Assembly (NCBI GenBank): GCA_965648905.1
Contig: CBFGIT010000015.1
Location: forward strand, 1 to 64,000
Origin: a candidate division WOR-3 bacterium
GTDB lineage: Bacteria; Hydrothermota; Tepidihabitantia; Tepidihabitantales; Tepidihabitantaceae
Length of the DNA stretch: 64,000 nt
Reading direction: 5' to 3'
Part shown: positions 7,491 through 57,617 of the stretch, piece after piece
How positions within the stretch are numbered: the stretch's first letter is position 1
How the letters are laid out: the number at the start of each line of letters is the position of its first letter
Position numbers and translations under genes: made by a program
The notes under the pieces: model-generated
The model's database searches: none
What the model was told of the DNA's origin: nothing
Seen by the model: only the letters and a program-made list of their open reading frames with translations

Positions 7491-9875
7491 ATGATCGATA
7501 CGACCGTAACCGACAACCATCTGACAACGCTCCGTCGACAACTGGCCGCGGCGCGTGACCCGGCTGAGCGTCTGCCGCTGCTGCTCAGGCTCGGCGAGGC
7601 GCTGACGCTCAAGTACCCGGCTGAAGCCGAAGCTCTGCTGGTCGAGGCTTACGAGGCCGCGCTGGTCTGCAACGCTGAGAACGAAATCGGCCGGGCCTGC
7701 TGGTTTCTGTGTGAGTTGAAGCGCGGGGTCGGCGACATCGAGAATGCCCGATATTGGGTCGGACGGCTGGCCGACGTCGCACAGAAAATGAAGAGTGAGT
7801 TCCTGGAAGGGTACCACCACTACGCGCTGGGTGCAACCTGTTGGTCGGCCGGCGACTACGAGACCGCACAACTGAGCTACGAGCGTTGTCTGGAGACCTG
7901 GAAGAAGTGCGGGTATCGACTGGGCGAGATATCGGCCCTCAACGGTCTTGCCACGATTGCCGGTCAGCAGGGACGGCCGGCTGAGCAGCTTGAACTGCTG
8001 CAGGCGTGCGTGCTGATCGCCGAGGAAGTCAATGCCGAGCAGTGGCGACCGTGGCTTGCCTATCTTCTGGCCTGGCCTCTGCTCGAACTCGGTCGCTGGG
8101 AAGAGGCGTTCCAGACATTCTATCGCGCGCTCGCCATGAGCGAGCAGCGCGGCACGACCAGACTGATGAGCGAAGCATTCCTCGGACTTGGAGAGATTTT
8201 TCTGCACCGCAACATGCCGGGTCGGGCCCGGGCCATGTTCCGGCGGGCGATTGAGGCCGGGCAGAAACGCGAGACCTGGCCTGAGATGTACCGCAAAGCG
8301 CTTGTTGAGACTGGTCTCACGTTCCTGGCGCAGGGCAACCTGGCCGCGGCCTGGCAAGTGCTCGAGGAGGCCGAAGCCGCCTGTCGCCGGGTTGGGGTGA
8401 AGACCGAACTCGTCGCGGTACTGACCAGTCAGGCGGAAGTTGCGCTCGGTCGGGGTCTGGTTCGCCGTGCCGTTGAGCTGACACTCGAGGCCGAGACTTT
8501 CGCTCGTGAGGTCGCACTTCCGCTCGACATCGGCGAGGCGCTGCGCGTCAAGGCATTGGTGCTGGCTGCGAGCAATCGGCCGGATGAGGCGATTGCGGCG
8601 TTCGACGAAGCCCTGTCCTGGTTGCGTGATGCTCAAGAGAGCTACCGGCTTGCCCGAGTCGAGTTCGAGTTCGGACGGTTCCTGGCTGCCCGGCACGACG
8701 ATGCCGCTGCAGTTGAACACCTTCAGGCCGCGGTGCGCCTGCTGCGTGGTCTGGTCATGGTCGCAAATGCGGTTGAGAGCATCCGTCTGCTGATGGATAT
8801 TGAGCTTGTTCGCGGCTCGGGTGCGGCTCTTTTCAATGCCGTGTCGTCGCTGTCCACTCTGCGGTTACCGCCCGCTTTGCTGGTCAGCCACGCCTTATCG
8901 TTCATCTGCCGGGCAACCGGAGCCGACGCCGGCACAGTGTGGGCAGGCGAGAGGATAGCAGCGAGGTGGGAACGAGTTGGCCGCAGCACCGGTGCTCCGA
9001 CTCAGACCACGACCTACCCGGTATTCTTCGGCAGCACGCAGACCGGAACGGTCTGTCTTGAGCGCAGCCACCAACATGCTGAGGCTGCCGGCGTTGCGGT
9101 CGCCGGTGTGACCAGCATCATCGCCCTGCCGCTCCATCGACTCGCGACGTCGGCTCCGCCAAAGTCGCCGCATGGACTGCACATGTCCGGCGTTGCCGGC
9201 CCGGCTCCCGCCTATCAGGCACTTCTCGCGGCGGCTGCCCGGTTGGCGCGCACCGACACACCGTTACTGATTACCGGCGAGCGAGCGACTGGTCGGCGGT
9301 TCATCGCACGGGTAGTGCATGACTCGAGTGAACGTGCCGGCCGACCATTCGTTGTGGTCTGCTGCGGTGGCGTGCCTGATGACCTGTTGGCCGATGAGTT
9401 GTTCGGCCACGAGGCCGACCCCGGTGCTGGTATCGACGCCCGACCCGGCCGGCTGTCGAGTGCGGAACGCGGTACACTCGTGTTGTACGAACTGGGTGCG
9501 GGCTCCGGGCTTCGGTCGCGGCTTACTGAAGTTGTGCGGACCGGTGTTCCGGACATAAGGCTCGTTGTGATACCGCAGAACCCGGCCTGTGGCAGCGAAC
9601 TCTCTGACCTTTGTTGCTGGGCCACTCTCGCAGTGCCGTCCCTGCGCGAACGGCGCGAGGATATCCCGGGACTGGCGCAGTACTTCCTTGAAGCAGTGGC
9701 GAACGAGTTCATCCGCAATGTTGCCGGTCTGTCTCCTGATGCGATCGCACGCCTTGAGTCCTACGACTGGCCGGGCAACGTCCGGGAACTTCAACAGGCG
9801 ATTGAGCGGGCGGTGATGTTGGCTGAAGACCGCATCGCCGATGTCGCTCATCTTCCGCCTGAACTCCGCGGCTGA
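7491..9875 (+). CDS. TPR-repeat protein fused to a degenerate sigma-54 interaction (bEBP AAA+) domain
   Basis: About 450 aa of TPR-like helices, then LLITGERATGR, PFVVVCC, ELFGHE, PSLRERREDI, YDWPGNVREL. Upstream TTGACA-N16-TAGCAT. Confidence 0.85.
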   Translation: MIDTTVTDNHLTTLRRQLAAARDPAERLPLLLRLGEALTLKYPAEAEALLVEAYEAALVCNAENEIGRACWFLCELKRGVGDIENARYWVGRLADVAQKMKSEFLEGYHHYALGATCWSAGDYETAQLSYERCLETWKKCGYRLGEISALNGLATIAGQQGRPAEQLELLQACVLIAEEVNAEQWRPWLAYLLAWPLLELGRWEEAFQTFYRALAMSEQRGTTRLMSEAFLGLGEIFLHRNMPGRARAMFRRAIEAGQKRETWPEMYRKALVETGLTFLAQGNLAAAWQVLEEAEAACRRVGVKTELVAVLTSQAEVALGRGLVRRAVELTLEAETFAREVALPLDIGEALRVKALVLAASNRPDEAIAAFDEALSWLRDAQESYRLARVEFEFGRFLAARHDDAAAVEHLQAAVRLLRGLVMVANAVESIRLLMDIELVRGSGAALFNAVSSLSTLRLPPALLVSHALSFICRATGADAGTVWAGERIAARWERVGRSTGAPTQTTTYPVFFGSTQTGTVCLERSHQHAEAAGVAVAGVTSIIALPLHRLATSAPPKSPHGLHMSGVAGPAPAYQALLAAAARLARTDTPLLITGERATGRRFIARVVHDSSERAGRPFVVVCCGGVPDDLLADELFGHEADPGAGIDARPGRLSSAERGTLVLYELGAGSGLRSRLTEVVRTGVPDIRLVVIPQNPACGSELSDLCCWATLAVPSLRERREDIPGLAQYFLEAVANEFIRNVAGLSPDAIARLESYDWPGNVRELQQAIERAVMLAEDRIADVAHLPPELRG

Positions 9876-10050
9876 ACTGCGCTGTCCGGCCTTATGACCT
9901 GAATGAGACTGATCGGTCAGCCGCTATTGCTAGCTGAGCCTGGGCGTGTAGAATTTCTACTGACCACTACGCGGGACAGGGTTCTCCCGAAGTCGGCTGA
10001 GCCCTGTCGCTGAGCGACCCGGTCACTGCGATAGATGAGAGCCTGATAGC

Positions 10051-12294
10051 ATGACGAAAGCCTGCCGGTTTCTGGGTGTTTCCCAGCATCCTGGTTCACA
10101 GCGGAGTCGCAAGGTACGGCGCGCCGGAGGGCCATTTCCGTGCTGCACGTTATGTCTTTGCCCGGGCGAGGCGCTGCTAGCCGGACTTCTGCTGTTTGCG
10201 GCTGCGAGGTGCGGGTATGCTCAACCTGAGCCGTGGGCACACCCAGACGGCACGGTGCACTATTTCCATGCTGTGGCCGTTCCCTGCGGGCTGAATTGGG
10301 CACAGGCGCTGGATTCGGCTCGGGCGCCGGGGGGATATCTTGCGACTCTGACCTCGCAGGACGAGAACGACATGATATTCCGTCTTGTGGACTCGGTGAT
10401 TTTCTGGCGCGAGCGGCCCGAGGAAGGGGTATGGGTCGGTCCATGGCTGGGTGGGCTTCAGCCGGCAGGCTCGCCTGAGCCGGGAGGAAACTGGCTGTGG
10501 ATAACGCGCCAGCATTTCGACTGGACCAACTGGTCGCCCGGTAAACCAGACAATTACGATTCTGACAACCGGCTGGTGCTAGGCGGTCAGGCATTGGGGC
10601 GGTCGGGAACCTGGGATGACCGAAACGGTAACGATTCGAACGTCCCCGGATTCGTGCTGGAGCTCTCGTGTGAGACCACCACTGTCGGGCTCACGCGCTT
10701 CGACAGCAGCGCGACACCGGGCTTTGTTCTCTTTTCTCCGGTAATGTCGTATTATACGTTTCTCGTCGACCGCAAGGGGCGTGCGGCACACCAGTGGGTT
10801 GCCGCGACCCGAGGTGTCGGTGGCTACGAGCTGCTCGACGATGGCACGCTGTTACGCTGCGCATTCGTCTCCAACCCGCTGGACAACTTCGGCGGCCGGG
10901 TAGAGAAGCTCGACTGGGACGGCAGACTGGTCTGGGCTTACGACTACGCTGACAGTCACCATGTTCAGCATCACGATGCCATCGGTCTTCCCAACGGCAA
11001 CGTGTTGCTGCTCGCGCGTGAACTGAAGACACGGAGTGAGGTCGAGGCCGCCGGGCGTGACCCCGAGCGGCTCATCGAGAGCCGACTCCTCCCTGACTAT
11101 CTGGTAGAGGTAGACCCGGCAACCGACAGCATTGTCTGGGAATGGCACGTGTGGGATCATCTGGTTCAGGACTTCGATTCTACCAAGGCCAACTACGGCG
11201 ATGTCGCGGCGCATCCGGAACTGGTTGACGTCAACTACCTCGGGCTTGGCGGGCGGTATGGTATCGCTGATTGGAACCACTCCAACTCACTTGACTACAA
11301 CCCACGACTTGACCAGATTCTTGTCAGCGTCCGCAACTTCAGCGAAGTCTGGGTGATTGACCACAGTACGACGACCGAGCAGGCGCGTGGCCACACTGGC
11401 GGCAGGCTGGGCATGGGTGGTGACATCGTCTACCGCTGGGGCAATCCCCAGGCATACCGGGCCGGGGACAGCGCGAGCCAGGTCCTCTACGGCCAGCACA
11501 ACGCGCGCTGGATTGAGCCCGGGCTGCCCGGTGCCGGTCACATTCTGGTCTTCAACAACGGTTACGGCCGGAGCGGCGAGGAGTACTCGACAGTTGACGA
11601 GTTCATACCTGAATCTGACAGCGCCGGTCGCTACCCTCGTCCGGCACGCGGACAGTCATACGGACCGAGTTCCTGTCACTGGCGCTACGGCGCTACGCCG
11701 GCACGATCGTTCTACTCGCCCTATATCAGCGGCGCGCAGCGCCTGGCCAGTGGTAATACGCTGGTCTGCAACGGGGGAGAGGGCCTTTTCTTCGAGGCGA
11801 CGCCAGATAGTCAGGTCGTCTGGACGTACGTTAACCCTTGGACCGTTGACCGGGCCCGCTACCAGGGGAGCAGAGGCCCAGGCGACGATGTATTCCGGGT
11901 CAGCTTCTATCCGCCCGGGTATTCCGGCTTTGCTGGTCGTGACCTGAAGCCTGGCTATCCCTTGGAGCGTTATCTCACTCCTGCGCTTGCGGGTCTGACC
12001 GACCGTCTGCTTCCCACGAGTGCGGCACACACCCTCAGCGCTGCGCCCAACCCGTTCCGGACCGCGACGAACATCGGCTGCGCATCGAACGGCAGTGGTG
12101 GCATTCGGCTTCAGTTGCTTGACGCTCTCGGTCGGGTGGTGCGTACGCTCAGCTCGCAGAGTTCAGGTTCGGACCGGACGAACGTGTCTTGGGACGGCAC
12201 CGACGACCGCGGGCAACCAGTAGGCTGTGGCGTTTACTACTGCCGGACAGCCGGGCAGTCCGCGACACCACTCGTGCTCGTCAAGCTGGAATGA
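10051..12294 (+). CDS. secreted C-type-lectin-like + aryl-sulfate sulfotransferase (ASST) family protein with FlgD/T9SS CTD (true start may be downstream)
   Basis: GGYLATLTSQDEN..WLGG..WTNWSPGKPDN (CTL); QHHDA, DWNHSNSLDY, YRWGNP, GQHNA, ISGAQRL (ASST); WDGTDDRGQPV. Confidence 0.85.
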   Translation: MTKACRFLGVSQHPGSQRSRKVRRAGGPFPCCTLCLCPGEALLAGLLLFAAARCGYAQPEPWAHPDGTVHYFHAVAVPCGLNWAQALDSARAPGGYLATLTSQDENDMIFRLVDSVIFWRERPEEGVWVGPWLGGLQPAGSPEPGGNWLWITRQHFDWTNWSPGKPDNYDSDNRLVLGGQALGRSGTWDDRNGNDSNVPGFVLELSCETTTVGLTRFDSSATPGFVLFSPVMSYYTFLVDRKGRAAHQWVAATRGVGGYELLDDGTLLRCAFVSNPLDNFGGRVEKLDWDGRLVWAYDYADSHHVQHHDAIGLPNGNVLLLARELKTRSEVEAAGRDPERLIESRLLPDYLVEVDPATDSIVWEWHVWDHLVQDFDSTKANYGDVAAHPELVDVNYLGLGGRYGIADWNHSNSLDYNPRLDQILVSVRNFSEVWVIDHSTTTEQARGHTGGRLGMGGDIVYRWGNPQAYRAGDSASQVLYGQHNARWIEPGLPGAGHILVFNNGYGRSGEEYSTVDEFIPESDSAGRYPRPARGQSYGPSSCHWRYGATPARSFYSPYISGAQRLASGNTLVCNGGEGLFFEATPDSQVVWTYVNPWTVDRARYQGSRGPGDDVFRVSFYPPGYSGFAGRDLKPGYPLERYLTPALAGLTDRLLPTSAAHTLSAAPNPFRTATNIGCASNGSGGIRLQLLDALGRVVRTLSSQSSGSDRTNVSWDGTDDRGQPVGCGVYYCRTAGQSATPLVLVKLE

Positions 12295-52479: not shown

Positions 52480-52579
52480 GTGAGACTATAGCTTCGAGAT
52501 GGATGATGTCAAGCAGGTTGAGCAGAAGGGCCAACAGCCCGTTACCAGGGTGGCAGGGGTTCGGGTCGTCGGCGGCGTC

Positions 52580-52745
52580 GTGGGGGCACAAGGAGCAGGC
52601 CGGGGCTGGTCGGCACGTGCGCGGCAGCGCCGTACAAGTTGGAATGCGGTCCGCAAGAAGGTGCGGCGGTATGCGGCTGAAGGACCGGCCGGACTGCTTG
52701 ACCGGTCGCGGCGTCCACACCACAGCCCGCGCCGCACGCCGGACA
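52580..52745 (+). pseudogene. IS481-like transposase N-terminal HTH remnant
   Basis: AVRKKVRRYAAEGPAGLLDRSRRPHHSPRRTP motif; no downstream DDE domain. Confidence 0.65.
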
Positions 52746-52880
52746 TTGACAGGACAACAGGGCCGGACCGCAGCAAGACCGTGTACCTGTTCAAGCACGC
52801 TGCGGCCGGCGAGCAATCGACTCTTGAACCCTCGACTTCACGATCTCAGCCTTGAACCTGCGCGTCCGCGGCGCGCGGCG

Positions 52881-53246
52881 CTACTTCACGTTTATCAGCC
52901 CGAAGCGCAGGAACTTCATCACGTCCTCGTCGAGGCCGCGCACCTTCCACTTGGCGATGAGCGCATCGGTCTCGTTCTTCAACACCTTGCCGGTGTAGAT
53001 GTTGGACTTCTTCCACAACTCGCGGCAGTAGTTCAGGTAGCTGACATACAGGGCCGAGGGGATACCTGAGTTGTCGATTGCCTCCTTGGCCTGTAGTTCA
53101 AAGTTCGCCAGCTCGGTCTGACGCGCCTGATGCCGGGCCAGAGCATACTCGCGCACGTCATCGCTGGTCTGCTTTGTCCGCTCCGGCTTGGTCTTGGTTG
53201 CGTACTTGAACTGCCGGTCGATGTTGTCTCTGATTCTTCCGGGCAT
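52881..53246 (-). CDS. 121-aa basic alpha-helical protein, candidate SIRV2-fold (Adnaviria) major-capsid-protein homolog
   Basis: GAAAGGA RBS, own promoter, GC3-rich codons; R-x4-R-x2-K-Y-x2-K, GI-x7-Y-x2-Y and TG-x2-L-x-N-x4-L motifs. The CDS is well supported; the fold assignment is inference. Confidence 0.7.
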   Translation of the reverse strand: MPGRIRDNIDRQFKYATKTKPERTKQTSDDVREYALARHQARQTELANFELQAKEAIDNSGIPSALYVSYLNYCRELWKKSNIYTGKVLKNETDALIAKWKVRGLDEDVMKFLRFGLINVK

Positions 53247-53362
53247 TGTTCTGTCCTTTCTGCTGCCTCTGCGGCCTGGCGGCTGCAGGTCCGGCTGAAC
53301 GCGGACACGCCCGACGTTCGCAGCGCGCGAGCCACGCACGCACAGCCGAAGCAGCCACGAAG

Positions 53363-53391
53363 AGTATAGCTGCGCAAGTCGCCCGGCGCAA
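53363..53391 (-). promoter_or_regulatory. sigma70-type promoter of the capsid-fold gene
   Basis: TTGCGC-N17-TATACT on the minus strand. Confidence 0.6.
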
Positions 53392-53444
53392 GACCAAGCG
53401 TCCCCCTAAGCCACTAATCCTGGACGCGCGGCGCAACTCCTGCG

Positions 53445-53696
53445 GCTTAGCGCTGATATACCACGCGGGCATACGCAGAGTAAACGGGTACTATCACCAG
53501 CGGGGCGTACCAGACATAGACCGATAGGGTATTGCCACGGTAGTAGCCAGGGGGCTAGCCCCGGGCCACGGGGAGGTATACCCCAGGGTATGCCCTGTCG
53601 GCTTACCGGGATTAGAACCTGCAATAAGACCGGCGGTAGACCTCGAGGTAGCATGACCGATAATAGCCGTCCGTCTAATGGTACTAACCTCTCCAG
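53445..53696. repeat. 12-bp-periodic array of about 21 units (TAnTA / TAnRC / GYnTA)
   Basis: 20 of 27 TA dinucleotides fall in two phases 3 bp apart (53457+12n: 12 sites; 53448+12n: 8 sites). Confidence 0.85.
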
Positions 53697-53940
53697 AGGG
53701 CGAACGAACGGGCGGCCGCTGCGCCGAGCAAAGCTGCAACAGCAAGCCGGCCAAGAGGTTAGCCTCATCGGCCCCCGCTTCGGCTGCCTGTCCGGACGGC
53801 GAGTTCCGCGCGGCCTTCAGAGGTGTGACGAATGAGTCAGCCTCTTGCCGGTTTGGGCGCGCGACTGGCTGTTGGCGCACCGGCAGACCCGGCGCGCACT
53901 ACGCGGTGTGCAAACCTGAGCAGCCGGACGACGAAAGGCA

Positions 53941-54129
53941 GTACCCTTGGAGCTCTTGGTGAGCTTGGTGGTTCAATCTCGGACTCGGGGTTGTGCCTGA
54001 GCCCTGGTTCCGACACTGGAGCAACCGCAGAGGCCAACTGTCGAAGTTCGAAGGTCGAAGCTCGAAGTTCGAACGTACCCTTGGAGCTCTTGGTGAACTT
54101 GGTGGTTCAATTTCGGATTCGGAGCTGTG
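53941..54129. repeat. two 55-bp direct repeats with an intervening heptamer run
   Basis: GTACCCTTGGAGCTCTTGGTGARCTTGGTGGTTCAATYTCGGAYTCGG at 53941-53995 and 54075-54129 (5 mismatches); five TCGAA-core heptamers at 54041-54075. Confidence 0.85.
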
Positions 54130-54539
54130 GGCTTGACTGGGCGCAGAGCCGAACTAGACTTGTTCGTCCTCAAAGACCAGGCAAGCCGAAGTGCCCGGCA
54201 AGGAGAAAGCGGCTGACCATGTCCTGCCCGCTGTTTGTCTCTAAGCTCAGCAGGGCGCTCAAGAGAGCCCTGCCATCTGAGCCTGTAACTTCCCGCTCCA
54301 GCCGGGGTCGGGGCGGGCGTACCTCGGCCTTGACCGTTGCACCAGTCTCCGCCGCACAAGCGGTGAGATTCAGGGAGGTGCTGATATGAACACAGCAGGC
54401 CCAACCTTCGCCAATCTCCAACCTCGTCCTTCTGGGTGAGGTGCCAATAATCATGTGCAATGTCCCTGGAACCGCAGAACCGAACCGCGGATTCCTGCCC
54501 GGAGTGCGGCCAGTGCCTCATGTCCGCGGCCGAGCCGCC

Positions 54540-56549
54540 CTATGGACGCCGGACGTTGCCGCTGTCGTTACTCGCGAACGTGTTTGCGGCCTCGAGTGTG
54601 TCCGGGTCTGGATACTCGGTCCCGTCGAGGTATATGCCCCATGCTCTGCTGTCGGAGATGTAGGAGCCGGAAATGTCAGGAACGGCATCGGTAATGACGA
54701 CATTACCCTTGTCGTCACCTCCCCCGTAGGAGATTCGGCAGTTCCTGATTCGGCAAATGGTATCAATCGCCTGCCTCCAGAACGACAGCCCGCGCCAGTC
54801 GCCAGGCTGCGGGTTCTCGGCTGCTGAGGTGAACTCTATCTGCCCGGCCGTGCCGTCCGCAATCAATCCGCCGCTGGCGACTGTGTCGCCGATGATGATG
54901 CCTGTCCCGGACTGGAACTGCAGGGTCGCACCAGGTTCGATCGCGACCACCGGTCCGCTGTCTCCCGAGACCTGCACACTCGCTCGGAAGACATAGGGAA
55001 CCCCAGGGCTGCGCCAGTTGCCGGAGGTCACGACTCTGCCGCCGTCAACCAGCACGATGTCTCCACCCGGGCCGTTGCCGGTCAGATTGTTGCCGGGTCC
55101 GATCCGACTGATACCCTCGGCCGGCAGACGCAACGCCGGGCCGACGCACGTGGTGACGATGTTGTTGCTGAAGTCGTTGAGGTAGCCGCCCACACACACG
55201 ACTCCAGCACCGCCGCTCTGCCGTATCACGCAATTGCTCAGACTCAACCCGATGCTGGCGCTCTCCCGCACCGCAGCGGCGTTACCCGCTCCGGCAAACT
55301 CCACGATGCAGTGGCTTAGCCGAGACCCGGCCAAGGTCCGGCCAAGGAATGCCAACCCTCGCCAGTCGCCGCGCGCCGGGGTCTCGGCATCAGACGTGAA
55401 GGTCACATTCGAATTGGCAGTGCCGACGGCAACGACGCCGCCCGGACCTGCCCGTCCGCATTCAATACCGGCACCGGTTCGAAACCTGATGGTCACGCCC
55501 GGCTCGATGGTCAGCATCGGCACAGCCGAGCCGCCGACCTGGATTGTGGCATCCTCTTCGACGACATAAGGCATGCCAAGGTTGAACCACATGCCGCTGC
55601 CCGCGAGCGCACCGGCGCCGACGAGGATGTAGTCACGGCCATTACCGGCCAAGCGATTTCCGGGCCTGAGAAACCGAACTCCCTCGGGCGGCACTCTGAC
55701 CGGATAGGAGGCGCAGCCGGTCACTGTGTTGGAGTCGAAGTCAACGCAGTGCCCCTGAAACGTGTTGTCAATGCCGGCACCGGCACTTCCCACGATGGTC
55801 GTGTGGTCCATCCTGACAATCGCGCCCATGAACAGGAAGAACGCTGCCCCGCCTGCATCACCGGCGTGCTCTATCCGGCAGTAGCTGAGCACCGAGCTTC
55901 GTCGTGTGCCTTCGTAACAGCGCACGCCATACCAGGACCCGGGACCAGGAGTAGATGAGTTCGACCGAAACAGGATGAGCGAATCAGGCTTCCCGACCGC
56001 GGACAGCTCACCGGCCGAACCCCAGCCGACCGTGAGGCCGGCACCGTCGTCGAACCGGACATCGCAACCGGGCAGGATGGTCAGCTTTGCACCATGGCAG
56101 ACGCTGACGCTGGTCGTAACCACGTGCGGGTTGCCCGAGGGCCACCAGACTTCGTTTGCGGTGATGTCTGTGCCGTGCGTTGTCGGCCCTGAGCCTCCGG
56201 CAATGCTGACAACGCACGTATCCTCGGCCGTATTGCCCCAGCGGTCTTGAACCCGGGCAACGATACGGTGGGTGCTTCCTGGCCTCTCCCCTGTCGCATC
56301 CCAGGTGCAGCGAAACGTATCAGAAGCACTACTCCCGGTGCTGTCGAGCAGCAGCGTATCAGCATAGACCGCGACCCAGCTCAGGTGCTTGTCGTCAGTT
56401 GCGACCACGGTCACTTGTGTTTCGGCAGCGGCGATCACTGCGTTCCGGGCCGGTTCTGTCACTTCCACCAACGGGGCGGTCTTGTCCTTGAAGGCGCAGC
56501 CGATGGTGATCGCCAGCCCGGCCGCAAACAGCATGAAACGTCCTGACAT
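54540..56549 (-). CDS. lipoprotein with Ig-like domain and repeated parallel beta-helix modules
   Basis: Lipobox TIGC; three TI.PG..F..G..G.L.A.G..FTS..P..G.W.G repeats; AGGAGG RBS. Confidence 0.8.
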   Translation of the reverse strand: MSGRFMLFAAGLAITIGCAFKDKTAPLVEVTEPARNAVIAAAETQVTVVATDDKHLSWVAVYADTLLLDSTGSSASDTFRCTWDATGERPGSTHRIVARVQDRWGNTAEDTCVVSIAGGSGPTTHGTDITANEVWWPSGNPHVVTTSVSVCHGAKLTILPGCDVRFDDGAGLTVGWGSAGELSAVGKPDSLILFRSNSSTPGPGSWYGVRCYEGTRRSSVLSYCRIEHAGDAGGAAFFLFMGAIVRMDHTTIVGSAGAGIDNTFQGHCVDFDSNTVTGCASYPVRVPPEGVRFLRPGNRLAGNGRDYILVGAGALAGSGMWFNLGMPYVVEEDATIQVGGSAVPMLTIEPGVTIRFRTGAGIECGRAGPGGVVAVGTANSNVTFTSDAETPARGDWRGLAFLGRTLAGSRLSHCIVEFAGAGNAAAVRESASIGLSLSNCVIRQSGGAGVVCVGGYLNDFSNNIVTTCVGPALRLPAEGISRIGPGNNLTGNGPGGDIVLVDGGRVVTSGNWRSPGVPYVFRASVQVSGDSGPVVAIEPGATLQFQSGTGIIIGDTVASGGLIADGTAGQIEFTSAAENPQPGDWRGLSFWRQAIDTICRIRNCRISYGGGDDKGNVVITDAVPDISGSYISDSRAWGIYLDGTEYPDPDTLEAANTFASNDSGNVRRP

Positions 56550-56579: not shown

Positions 56580-57617
56580 CTAGAGCTCAACGGCCAGCGA
56601 AAGGCGATGGGACATGCCCAGCCGGCCAAGGTTGCGGTAGTTGTAGTCCAGACCCAGACCGATCGCGTCTGCCGGACGCACCCGCAGGCCGAGCCCGGCA
56701 GACAAACCCGTGCTCAGTCCCGCCTCGCGCGCGTATTCGGCATCGGCGTTGACGACGTACCCGACTCTGAGCCAGATCGGCTTGAGGCAATACTCCAGCC
56801 CGATGTTGACCTTTTCATTGACGTCGTTGAAGTGGTTGAGGTCGAGGGCTGCGGTCAGGTACGACGCGTCGCGCCGCAGAAGGTCGTAGGCCAGGCCGAA
56901 CCGGAACGTAACCGGGAGCGGAAATGTCTCGGTGAGATACGAGCCGGGCAGCTTCTCTCTTGTCCACGGCCATTCGTACCCCGGGTCGTGCGTGAAATTG
57001 AGAAGGCCGCCGCTGAACTTGAGGTCCGGGCCGAAGTTGGCAATCGCCATCCCCAACCTCAGGTTCTGCCAGCCGGTATTGTAGTGCACGCCGAAGTCAA
57101 AGGCGAGCCCCGATGCCGCGACGTTCCAGACCTGCTCGGAAACCGCCTTTGCTGAGAGACCGAATGCGAGCTTGTCGGTGAACATCCGGGCGTAACTCAC
57201 GCCCAGAGCAAGGTCTCGGGCCGAGAACGTGTTGCCCGTCCCCTGAGGTTCGTCAATCGTTGTCTCTTCAAAGGTACCATGGTTCAGGGCGGTAACCGCC
57301 AGACCGATGCTTCCCGCGTTGGTTGGCAGCACACCAGCAACGTACTCATGGCTGACATCGTCAATCCAGTCAGTGTGATTGAAGATCGCCTGGCGCTTTC
57401 CCACCAGGGCCAGACCGGCCGGGTTCCAGTATGCCGCGCTGGCGTCATCGGCGACTGCGACAAACGCTTCGCCCATGCCGGTGCACCGGCCCACGCCGAT
57501 TTTCAGAAACGGCATGCCGGCCATGCCGACCTTGGTGAAGACGGCCTGTGTCGAGCCGACCAGCAGAAAGACGACCGAGACGATGGCGACCGTGCACTTG
57601 CTCGCTTTGGCTATCAT
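56580..57617 (-). CDS. PorV/PorQ family outer-membrane protein
   Basis: FLKIGVG..GMGEAFVAVADDASAAYWNPAGL; C-terminal LG.SHRLSL. Confidence 0.88.
   Translation of the reverse strand: MIAKASKCTVAIVSVVFLLVGSTQAVFTKVGMAGMPFLKIGVGRCTGMGEAFVAVADDASAAYWNPAGLALVGKRQAIFNHTDWIDDVSHEYVAGVLPTNAGSIGLAVTALNHGTFEETTIDEPQGTGNTFSARDLALGVSYARMFTDKLAFGLSAKAVSEQVWNVAASGLAFDFGVHYNTGWQNLRLGMAIANFGPDLKFSGGLLNFTHDPGYEWPWTREKLPGSYLTETFPLPVTFRFGLAYDLLRRDASYLTAALDLNHFNDVNEKVNIGLEYCLKPIWLRVGYVVNADAEYAREAGLSTGLSAGLGLRVRPADAIGLGLDYNYRNLGRLGMSHRLSLAVEL

Follow-up and report, generated by a model that had tools for sequence, protein, structure and literature searches.

Does a bacterial chromosome encode a relative of the coat protein of archaeal rod-shaped viruses and, if it does, what would such a protein do in a bacterium? 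The question is raised by P0001, a small gene in a 64,000-nucleotide stretch of DNA from an uncultivated candidate division WOR-3 bacterium (positions 1 to 64,000 of contig CBFGIT010000015.1, GenBank assembly GCA_965648905.1; the window, at its full length). A preliminary description of the window had compared the product of this gene with the major capsid protein of the rudivirus SIRV2. An entire realm of viruses, Adnaviria, takes its definition from the SIRV2-type capsid protein. The preliminary description held that its fold characterizes archaeal filamentous viruses, and two sources put it in the same way: SIRV2-family capsid proteins are described as exclusive to these viruses (PMC9246712), and the ICTV profile (PMC12282232) gives archaeal hosts only and a fold unseen in other known viruses. 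In the literature covered, which did not extend to subscription papers, no bacterial homolog of a SIRV2-type capsid protein is reported; a 2026 preprint on filamentous double-stranded DNA (dsDNA) elements of Dehalococcoides brings in Adnaviria for comparison only and reports no such capsid protein. We find that P0001 is an intact, chromosomal and true relative of the archaeal rod-virus coat protein and a member of a large bacterial family; this family is a new bacterial, non-virion branch of a group of proteins so far regarded as limited to archaeal viruses. The gene and its parts are as follows:

52881..53246, minus strand: coding sequence of P0001 (121 amino acids plus stop), a basic, predicted all-helical homolog of Adnaviria major capsid proteins
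53112..53246, minus strand: basic N-terminal helical arm (codons 1-45), aligned to SIRV2 residues 7-50 and the counterpart of the arm with which viral capsid proteins wrap DNA
52884..53111, minus strand: C-terminal four-helix bundle (codons 46-121), corresponding to the core of the SIRV2 fold
53247..53262, minus strand: ribosome-binding region (AAAGGA) upstream of the ATG, as read from the sequence
52873..53685, strand unspecified: duplicated segment (P0001 and ~440 nt upstream), with a second copy on contig C11 of the same genome

The open reading frame (ORF) is intact and occupies exactly the interval at which the preliminary description had placed it, with its ATG at 53246, its stop codon at 52883-52881 and the AAAGGA motif ~9-14 nt upstream of the ATG. 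A mechanical ORF list extends the frame to a GTG at 53339; the ATG is favored as the start, 20 of 22 aligned relatives beginning at its position.

We described the family with two alignments: A1, a narrow subfamily profile of 22 sequences (P0001 and 21 relatives), and A2, a diverse alignment of 104 family members with P0001 in the first row. A word-indexed search identified 22 relatives of P0001 that share 60-92% identity with it; the three that carry names are all 'candidate division WOR-3 bacterium', and a second word-indexed search and a cluster look-up found no other taxon. Using A1, 347 proteins, mostly of 120-125 residues, were retrieved from 1.84 billion cluster representatives at E ≤ 1e-3. 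When A2 is compared with SIRV2 ORF134 (sequence from genome record AJ344259), hhalign returns a probability of 94.6% and an E-value of 7.3e-8 over 113 columns (P0001 residues 5-117 versus capsid residues 7-125). In this alignment the pairings drawn in the preliminary description, that is, RDNIDRQFKYATK/RSYSQRYAKWQAK (the arm), GIPSALYVSYLNY/GITGPNRAIYQGF, TGKVLKNETDAL/SGPALVNMINGL and GLDEDVM/NANPQVL, are reproduced column for column; the likeness in motif order and overall length that it reported also holds, the alignment being collinear and full-length (121 versus 134 residues). The identity of P0001 to the rudivirus capsid protein is ~15%.

The hidden Markov model (HMM) of A2, searched against all Protein Data Bank (PDB) sequences, matches SSRV1 (1.3e-8), SIRV2 (4e-7) and SFV1 (2.5e-5), followed by AFV1 ORF140 (0.003, two entries) and ORF132 (0.0055) and, more weakly, the C-terminus of the SIRV coat protein (0.027) and a crystal fragment of AFV1 ORF132 (0.034); each of the top eight matches is a capsid protein from an archaeal filamentous virus. 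Applied to the six-frame translation of the SIRV2 genome, the same HMM has a single match, ORF134 (33.3 bits). The Pfam families of this superfamily are PF12193, PF21660 and PF25647. A Pfam scan of the 104 members at E ≤ 1 finds Sulf_coat_C in 50 (best 4.6e-12), MCP_C in nine and SFV1_VP4 in seven; at E ≤ 1e-4, Sulf_coat_C (nine members) and MCP_C (one) are the sole families, so no unrelated family gives a better match at that threshold. At the family level, then, the sequence and profile similarity to Adnaviria capsid proteins is significant and the resemblance is beyond chance; P0001 itself almost certainly shares ancestry with these proteins.

The predicted structure points in the same direction. 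The AlphaFold2 model of P0001 has five helices (residues 8-19, 28-60, 64-83, 86-102 and 107-118) with a mean pLDDT of 82; the first 30 residues are modeled with less confidence (55-76). As modeled, the protein has the SIRV2 fold, that is, a C-terminal four-helix bundle that follows an extended helical N-terminal arm. The top Foldseek matches in the PDB are AFV1 ORF140, SIRV2 and SSRV1, with weak E-values (0.1-1.3) and probabilities of 0.84-1.00. In BFVD, a collection of predicted viral structures, the top row (probability 1.00) carries no name; the named matches at a probability of at least 0.9 are all from archaeal filamentous viruses, a lipothrixviral structural protein of SIFV2 follows at 0.69, and the best bacteriophage row reaches 0.57. 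In three structure searches with two models, the top ranks are filled by Adnaviria alone. Neither of the two outcomes that the preliminary description named as refuting its comparison has thus come about: Adnaviria capsid proteins are matched significantly by profile and are matched in structure, and no better match to an unrelated family exists. These results bear on convergence, that is, on the idea that a generic helical bundle resembles the capsid protein without common ancestry. We regard this explanation as largely refuted and its probability as close to nil: independent comparisons based on sequence alone reach E-values of 1e-8 with HMMER and 7e-8 with hhalign, the alignments run collinearly over the full length, N-terminal arm included, and no group other than Adnaviria leads the structure searches.

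What might the protein do? The rudivirus capsid proteins (SIRV2 ORF134, 3j9x; SSRV1, 6wq0; the C-terminus of the SIRV coat protein, 3f2e) have the same arm and four-helix bundle, share with P0001 the arm motif R-x2-K-aromatic-x2-K and, like P0001, are encoded by a single gene, which implies a homodimer. P0001 differs in that its host is bacterial and in that it is chromosomal, has no viral neighbors and is one of ~13 paralogs. According to two publications (PMC6105669, PMC12282232), the capsid proteins of archaeal filamentous viruses are homo- or heterodimers that wrap A-form DNA. Several features of the bacterial family hint at DNA binding: P0001 has a pI of 9.6; 94 of 104 relatives have an N-terminal arm with a net positive charge; and basic arm positions are conserved (R11, K14, K18 and K/R32 in P0001 numbering), with position 11 being R in 100 of the 104 and position 18 being K in 92. 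Both R11 and K18 lie within the motif aligned to the SIRV2 arm, and in a single-sequence PDB alignment K18 aligns with Lys20 of SFV1 VP4, a residue that adjoins DNA phosphates according to a figure legend (PMC6105669).

From the known viral structures we infer dimerization, DNA binding and a cellular role, and the reading that we favor, with somewhat better than even confidence, is that P0001 is a capsid-derived, dimeric DNA-coating protein that has been domesticated by bacteria. Two subunits would pair via the four-helix bundle at the C-terminus; genes that stand alone, P0001 among them, would give homodimers, as in rudiviruses; the basic N-terminal arms would run along the phosphate backbone of dsDNA; and many dimers together could coat and stiffen the DNA. 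In the cell, the protein would coat, silence or protect particular DNA rather than build virions. For the activity taken by itself, DNA coating, a proposal by analogy with the viral proteins, we would put the chance a little under one half.

Small basic proteins that coat DNA are familiar in bacteria, that is, the silencers of the H-NS, Lsr2, MvaT and Rok types and the α/β-type small acid-soluble spore proteins (SASPs); the latter, like the SIRV2 capsid protein, bind A-form DNA. The likeness of the P0001 family to these proteins would be one of working and not of descent: its members are of similar size and basic, occur as multiple paralogs and, in some copies, lie in or near acquired islands. 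Among the 104 members, no homology to HU/IHF, H-NS, Lsr2, MvaT or Rok was found at E ≤ 1e-4; one weak match to WH_Rok has an E-value of 0.021. Nor was any kinship in sequence or fold seen between the family and these DNA-coating proteins. HU is separately present in these genomes alongside the family. That the family replaces HU was considered and rejected, because PF00216 is found in 60 of the 65 genomes of the order and in 265 of 272 of the phylum.

P0001 is outside any provirus. It lies on a 74.8-kb contig with ordinary bacterial genes on both sides: one flank has exopolysaccharide genes (glycosyltransferases, a polysaccharide flippase and a deacetylase) and then genes for two small membrane proteins, of which one is DUF4870; the other flank encodes a beta-helix protein, a PorV-like protein and a TonB-dependent receptor. 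The chromosomal location supposed in the preliminary description is thereby borne out. The genome (G000) is 99.6% complete with 1% contamination and carries bacterial markers (HU, SecA, Mfd); the gene is found neither in the setting of a linear dsDNA virus genome nor in an archaeal host. The preliminary description had also called the codons host-like; codon use has no foreign look and is on the high side, with a G+C content at third codon positions (GC3) of 0.84 compared with 0.75 ± 0.05 for 982 long ORFs of the genome. The subfamily is under purifying selection, dN/dS being 0.07-0.43 in all 28 pairs among P0001 and its orthologs (eight sequences). That the family as a whole is chromosomal and does not serve in virions is, in our judgment, quite probable.

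We surveyed the phylum for the A2 family in 272 genomes, that is, G000, 65 others of its order and 206 from other families. The family occurs in G000 and, within its order, in all but one of the 65 other genomes (64 of 65), the exception being small and incomplete (0.6 Mb, 68% complete). None of the 206 genomes from other families has it. The preliminary description had called for a count of paralogs in the genome of P0001, and there are 13 (ORFs at E ≤ 0.01 with the A2 HMM); across genomes, scored matches number from two to at least 16 per genome, and a first look gave as many as 111 candidates. Twenty of 150 listed family matches start <600 bases from a contig start; such clustering is what near-identical repeats do to assemblies. 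At the seven other loci with P0001 orthologs, the DNA similarity stops at the gene borders, so that the coding sequence alone is common; the neighbors differ from locus to locus (a sigma-54 activator, rubrerythrin, GrpE, secreted FlgD_ig proteins, a cation-efflux pump). An IS-like element with terminal repeats was rejected as the carrier on the same grounds, the DNA similarity of both paralogs and orthologs being confined to the coding region with the exception of the C11 duplicate. A genome contig scan pointed to two loci; one is an ortholog, whereas the A2 HMM does not place the other, Porcipelethomonas locus L016, in the family.

The narrow distribution suggests that the family was acquired from a virus and then expanded, and this is the course that we envisage. 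A parallel exists in the cellular homologs of double jelly-roll capsid proteins, for which, as is reported (PMC8812541), a capsid fold thought to be virus-only was likewise found in cells; the fold is different and, unlike in that case, the more likely direction of transfer here is from virus to cell. The reverse direction, in which the bacterial (or a wider cellular) family would be the ancestor of the Adnaviria capsid protein, draws on the nature of the members, which are cellular, chromosomal, diverse (the 347 cluster representatives) and under selection. It also draws on the literature, in which no cellular homolog is recorded; in a 2025 preprint (10.1101/2025.08.23.671958), the capsid-protein tree had to be rooted with an unrelated three-helix domain, DUF732, no closer relative being at hand. 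Within the phylum, however, the family is confined to one order, and all three named relatives are from WOR-3, which together favor a single late acquisition; we consider an ancestral bacterial family very unlikely.

Other members of the family are organized differently from P0001. Three loci of G000, on contigs C10, C52 and C1, carry a module in which one or two divergent B-type paralogs are joined by a sigma-70 gene of the extracytoplasmic function (ECF) type and an A-type paralog; the modules of C10 and C52 have in addition an HPr-like gene, which separates the sigma gene from the A-type copy. The sigma modules are located at:

L010 9278-11959, strand unspecified: sigma module
L011 13-2838, strand unspecified: sigma module
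L009 6460-16935, strand unspecified: sigma module

Each module adjoins defense genes. The C10 module is next to a DrmD-like SNF2 protein (2e-218) and to GajA (2e-180) and GajB (5e-140), that is, Gabija; the C1 module is next to a Mokosh-like helicase (3e-49), PDC-S11 (3.5e-71) and a PsyrA-like protein; and the C52 module is next to a type IIG restriction-modification enzyme. The HPr-like gene on C52 is fused to a domain that matches the defense candidate PDC-M19A (E 4e-14). A sigma module is also carried by G187, and adjacent divergent paralogs occur in G000, G187 and G193, the last with tandem arrays of two or three. A natural fusion is known as well: the metagenomic member P0141 consists of two capsid-like domains in tandem and passes Pfam cut-offs for Sulf_coat_C (PF12193; 39.7 versus 25.2 bits) and SFV1_VP4 (29.4 versus 27). 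The paired paralogs and the fusion hint at dimers; adjacent divergent paralogs, and likewise the fusion, would act as heterodimers (A/B in the case of the pairs), as the paired capsid proteins of lipothrixviruses do. Such pairs are known from lipothrixviruses and related viruses (AFV1 ORF132/ORF140, 5w7g, 3fbz and 3fbl; SFV1 VP4/VP5, 6d5f; SIFV, 6wq2); the bacterial pairs differ in that what they flank is not virion genes but a sigma factor and an HPr-like gene, and P0001 differs in being solitary, as are most family copies in four small, well-assembled genomes.

These modules invite a viral explanation, namely that the family comprises capsid genes of unrecognized bacterial Adnaviria-like viruses, of satellites or of decaying remnants, with P0001 as a stray or relic; the A/B pairs would then be heterodimeric capsomers of an element with its own sigma factor and defense cargo. 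Several observations can be read this way: all the homology found is to virion proteins; the pairing of divergent paralogs recalls lipothrixviruses, which have two capsid proteins; and the ~10.5-kb island on C1 (B, B, cargo, sigma, A), bounded at one end by B-type copies and at the other by sigma plus the A-type copy, recurs as a unit, with different genes around it, in G182, a genome of the same genus. The P0001 subfamily also has a patchy distribution and a recent duplicate turned pseudogene, and copies of the family frequently lie near contig ends. Against this, none of the contexts examined contains a gene for an integrase, a terminase-like protein, replication or another virion function. 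Two pattern scans of IMG/VR, with A1 and A4, returned 56 and 67 matches, not one of them a relative, and tblastn recovered no family member from isolate phages (two queries) or plasmids (one query). That 64 of the order's 65 other genomes have the family and that solitary copies are under purifying selection argue in the same sense, as do sites that are kept between species: in two species of one genus, the same site is occupied after tig-clpP-clpX, beside clpB and divergent from groES-groEL, and the far side of the groES-groEL-linked copies is occupied by AIPR, AbiJ or STAND genes. On balance we hold the viral explanation to be improbable.

The sigma genes suggest another possibility, that the fold now serves in a regulator that binds proteins and no longer DNA, for example, as a partner or antagonist of an ECF-type sigma factor or as an adaptor in defense signaling. 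Anti-sigma genes are usually located directly downstream of a sigma gene, and in G000 (C10, C52 and C1), G182 and G187 the A-type paralogs have this position relative to sigma-70 genes; the modules on C10, C1 and C52 adjoin defense genes. By the same yardstick, a gene next to an ECF sigma gene, the A-type paralogs on C10, C52 and C1 and in G187 qualify as possible anti-sigma genes, but P0001 does not: no sigma gene lies within its flanks in the window, and most solitary copies likewise have no sigma factor nearby. In addition, the family as a whole keeps the basic arm and those residues that align with DNA-contacting positions. Among the 50 fold matches listed for each model there is no anti-sigma chain, an absence that by itself does not count against such a fold. 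A regulator without DNA binding is, in our estimate, as improbable as the viral explanation.

We return to the favored reading, a domesticated, capsid-derived protein that coats DNA; a number of observations weigh against it. For P0001 alone, the similarity is below threshold: in Pfam, SFV1_VP4 has an E-value of 0.12 (the second of two weak rows, full-length); in PDB sequences, the sole match is 6d5f, the SFV1 virion chain, at 0.84; and the Pfam model Sulf_coat_C, applied to the genome of P0001, misses it, the best paralog scoring 24.0 bits compared with a cut-off of 25.2. The narrow A1 alignment also fails against SIRV2 in hhalign (probability 0.2); since A2 succeeds, it is the diversity of the family that carries the signal. 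Close orthologs of P0001 (E ≤ 1e-60) occur in only 8 of 66 genomes and are missing from the same-genus G182; several lie near contig ends; and a recent duplicate of P0001 has a frameshifting deletion. Patchiness, a pseudogene duplicate and orthologs near contig ends would suit an origin as selfish or viral DNA no less than a function in the host. Finally, that many paralogs adjoin defense systems and ECF-type sigma factors could mean a regulatory or sensing role. The same neighborhood can be read in favor of DNA coating: the frequent place of the family at the edge of acquired or defense regions suggests that it silences or shields such DNA.

The duplicate just mentioned is on contig C11 (22609-23354; locus L012, ~9600-10350). 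It is 81% identical to the window over 53025-53685 and 93% identical over 52873-52957, and it does not contain the 67 nt at window positions 52958-53024; this loss causes a frameshift, and residues 1-76 and 94-121 find their matches in two different frames. The duplication is thus recent, and the copy is on its way to becoming a pseudogene.

The bacterial family provides an outgroup or sister group for the Adnaviria realm and raises the question of whether a capsid protein was domesticated or bacterial adnaviruses exist. As a 121-residue, easily expressed protein, P0001 offers a test of A-form DNA wrapping beyond viruses and spores. We also entertain, as a rather unlikely possibility, a bolder form of either answer: a capsid-derived, chromatin-like system of this WOR-3 order, in which homodimers of P0001 and A/B heterodimers would polymerize on DNA, possibly in A-form, into nucleoprotein filaments like those of the viruses and would silence or protect defense loci and acquired islands, with dedicated sigma factors in control, or else genes that would still make filamentous particles of undiscovered bacterial Adnaviria. 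If either is true, an 'archaea-only' fold works in bacteria, and the origin of the realm becomes testable.

Further searches gave the following results. Against the PDB, A1 matches 6d5f with an E-value of 0.16, ranked behind designed repeat proteins. Single-sequence scans with P0001 gave no match in NCBIfam or PADLOC and only a weak unrelated match in PHROGs (E 0.25), and a search of the ESM Atlas gave no usable match. Some members of the family are longer. Among P0047, P0115, P0121, P0126, P0138, P0140 and P0150 are members of 228-488 amino acids in which the domain is N-terminal and is followed by extensions without a Pfam match. P0161 has a coiled-coil-like tail, with matches to N-terminal models of phage scaffold and tape-measure proteins (E 5e-5 and 1e-4) that are both below Pfam cut-offs. 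In G187 (contig C5, L083 6105-8663), four members are encoded in a row on one strand (251, 93, 137 and 128 amino acids), with a sigma-70 region-2 protein between the third and fourth.

Family copies also adjoin heat-shock genes (clpB, tig-clpP-clpX, groES-groEL, grpE) at four to five independent sites of ~20, which in a tally made post hoc seems more than would be expected. The loci are:

L071/L075: heat-shock-adjacent
L072/L076: heat-shock-adjacent
L073/L077/L080: heat-shock-adjacent
L051: heat-shock-adjacent

The surroundings of P0001 have features of their own. In the comparison with G182, homology ends at window position 52483 and resumes at 55798; both points are contig ends in G182, so the borders of an insertion cannot be drawn. 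The G182 assembly (contigs C131 and C50) thus breaks on both sides of the 3.3 kb around P0001 (window 52484-55797), which suggests a repeated or variable segment. Upstream of P0001, ~1.2 kb (window 53340-54540) has no convincing ORF and no Rfam match; its 185- and 182-residue ORFs have no Pfam match. Within this stretch are a direct repeat of 55 nt (53941-53995 and 54075-54129, 91% identical) and a shorter pair of 15 nt (54041/54062). Farther away, the segment 56791-56906 has a match on contig C2 of G000, and Rfam reports CRISPR-DR20 at 56848-56883 below threshold (E 0.17). About 110 nt inside the PorV-like gene (window ~57405-57515) match at least five other G182 contigs at 72-81% identity; the matches in the PorV region are possibly small in-gene repeats.
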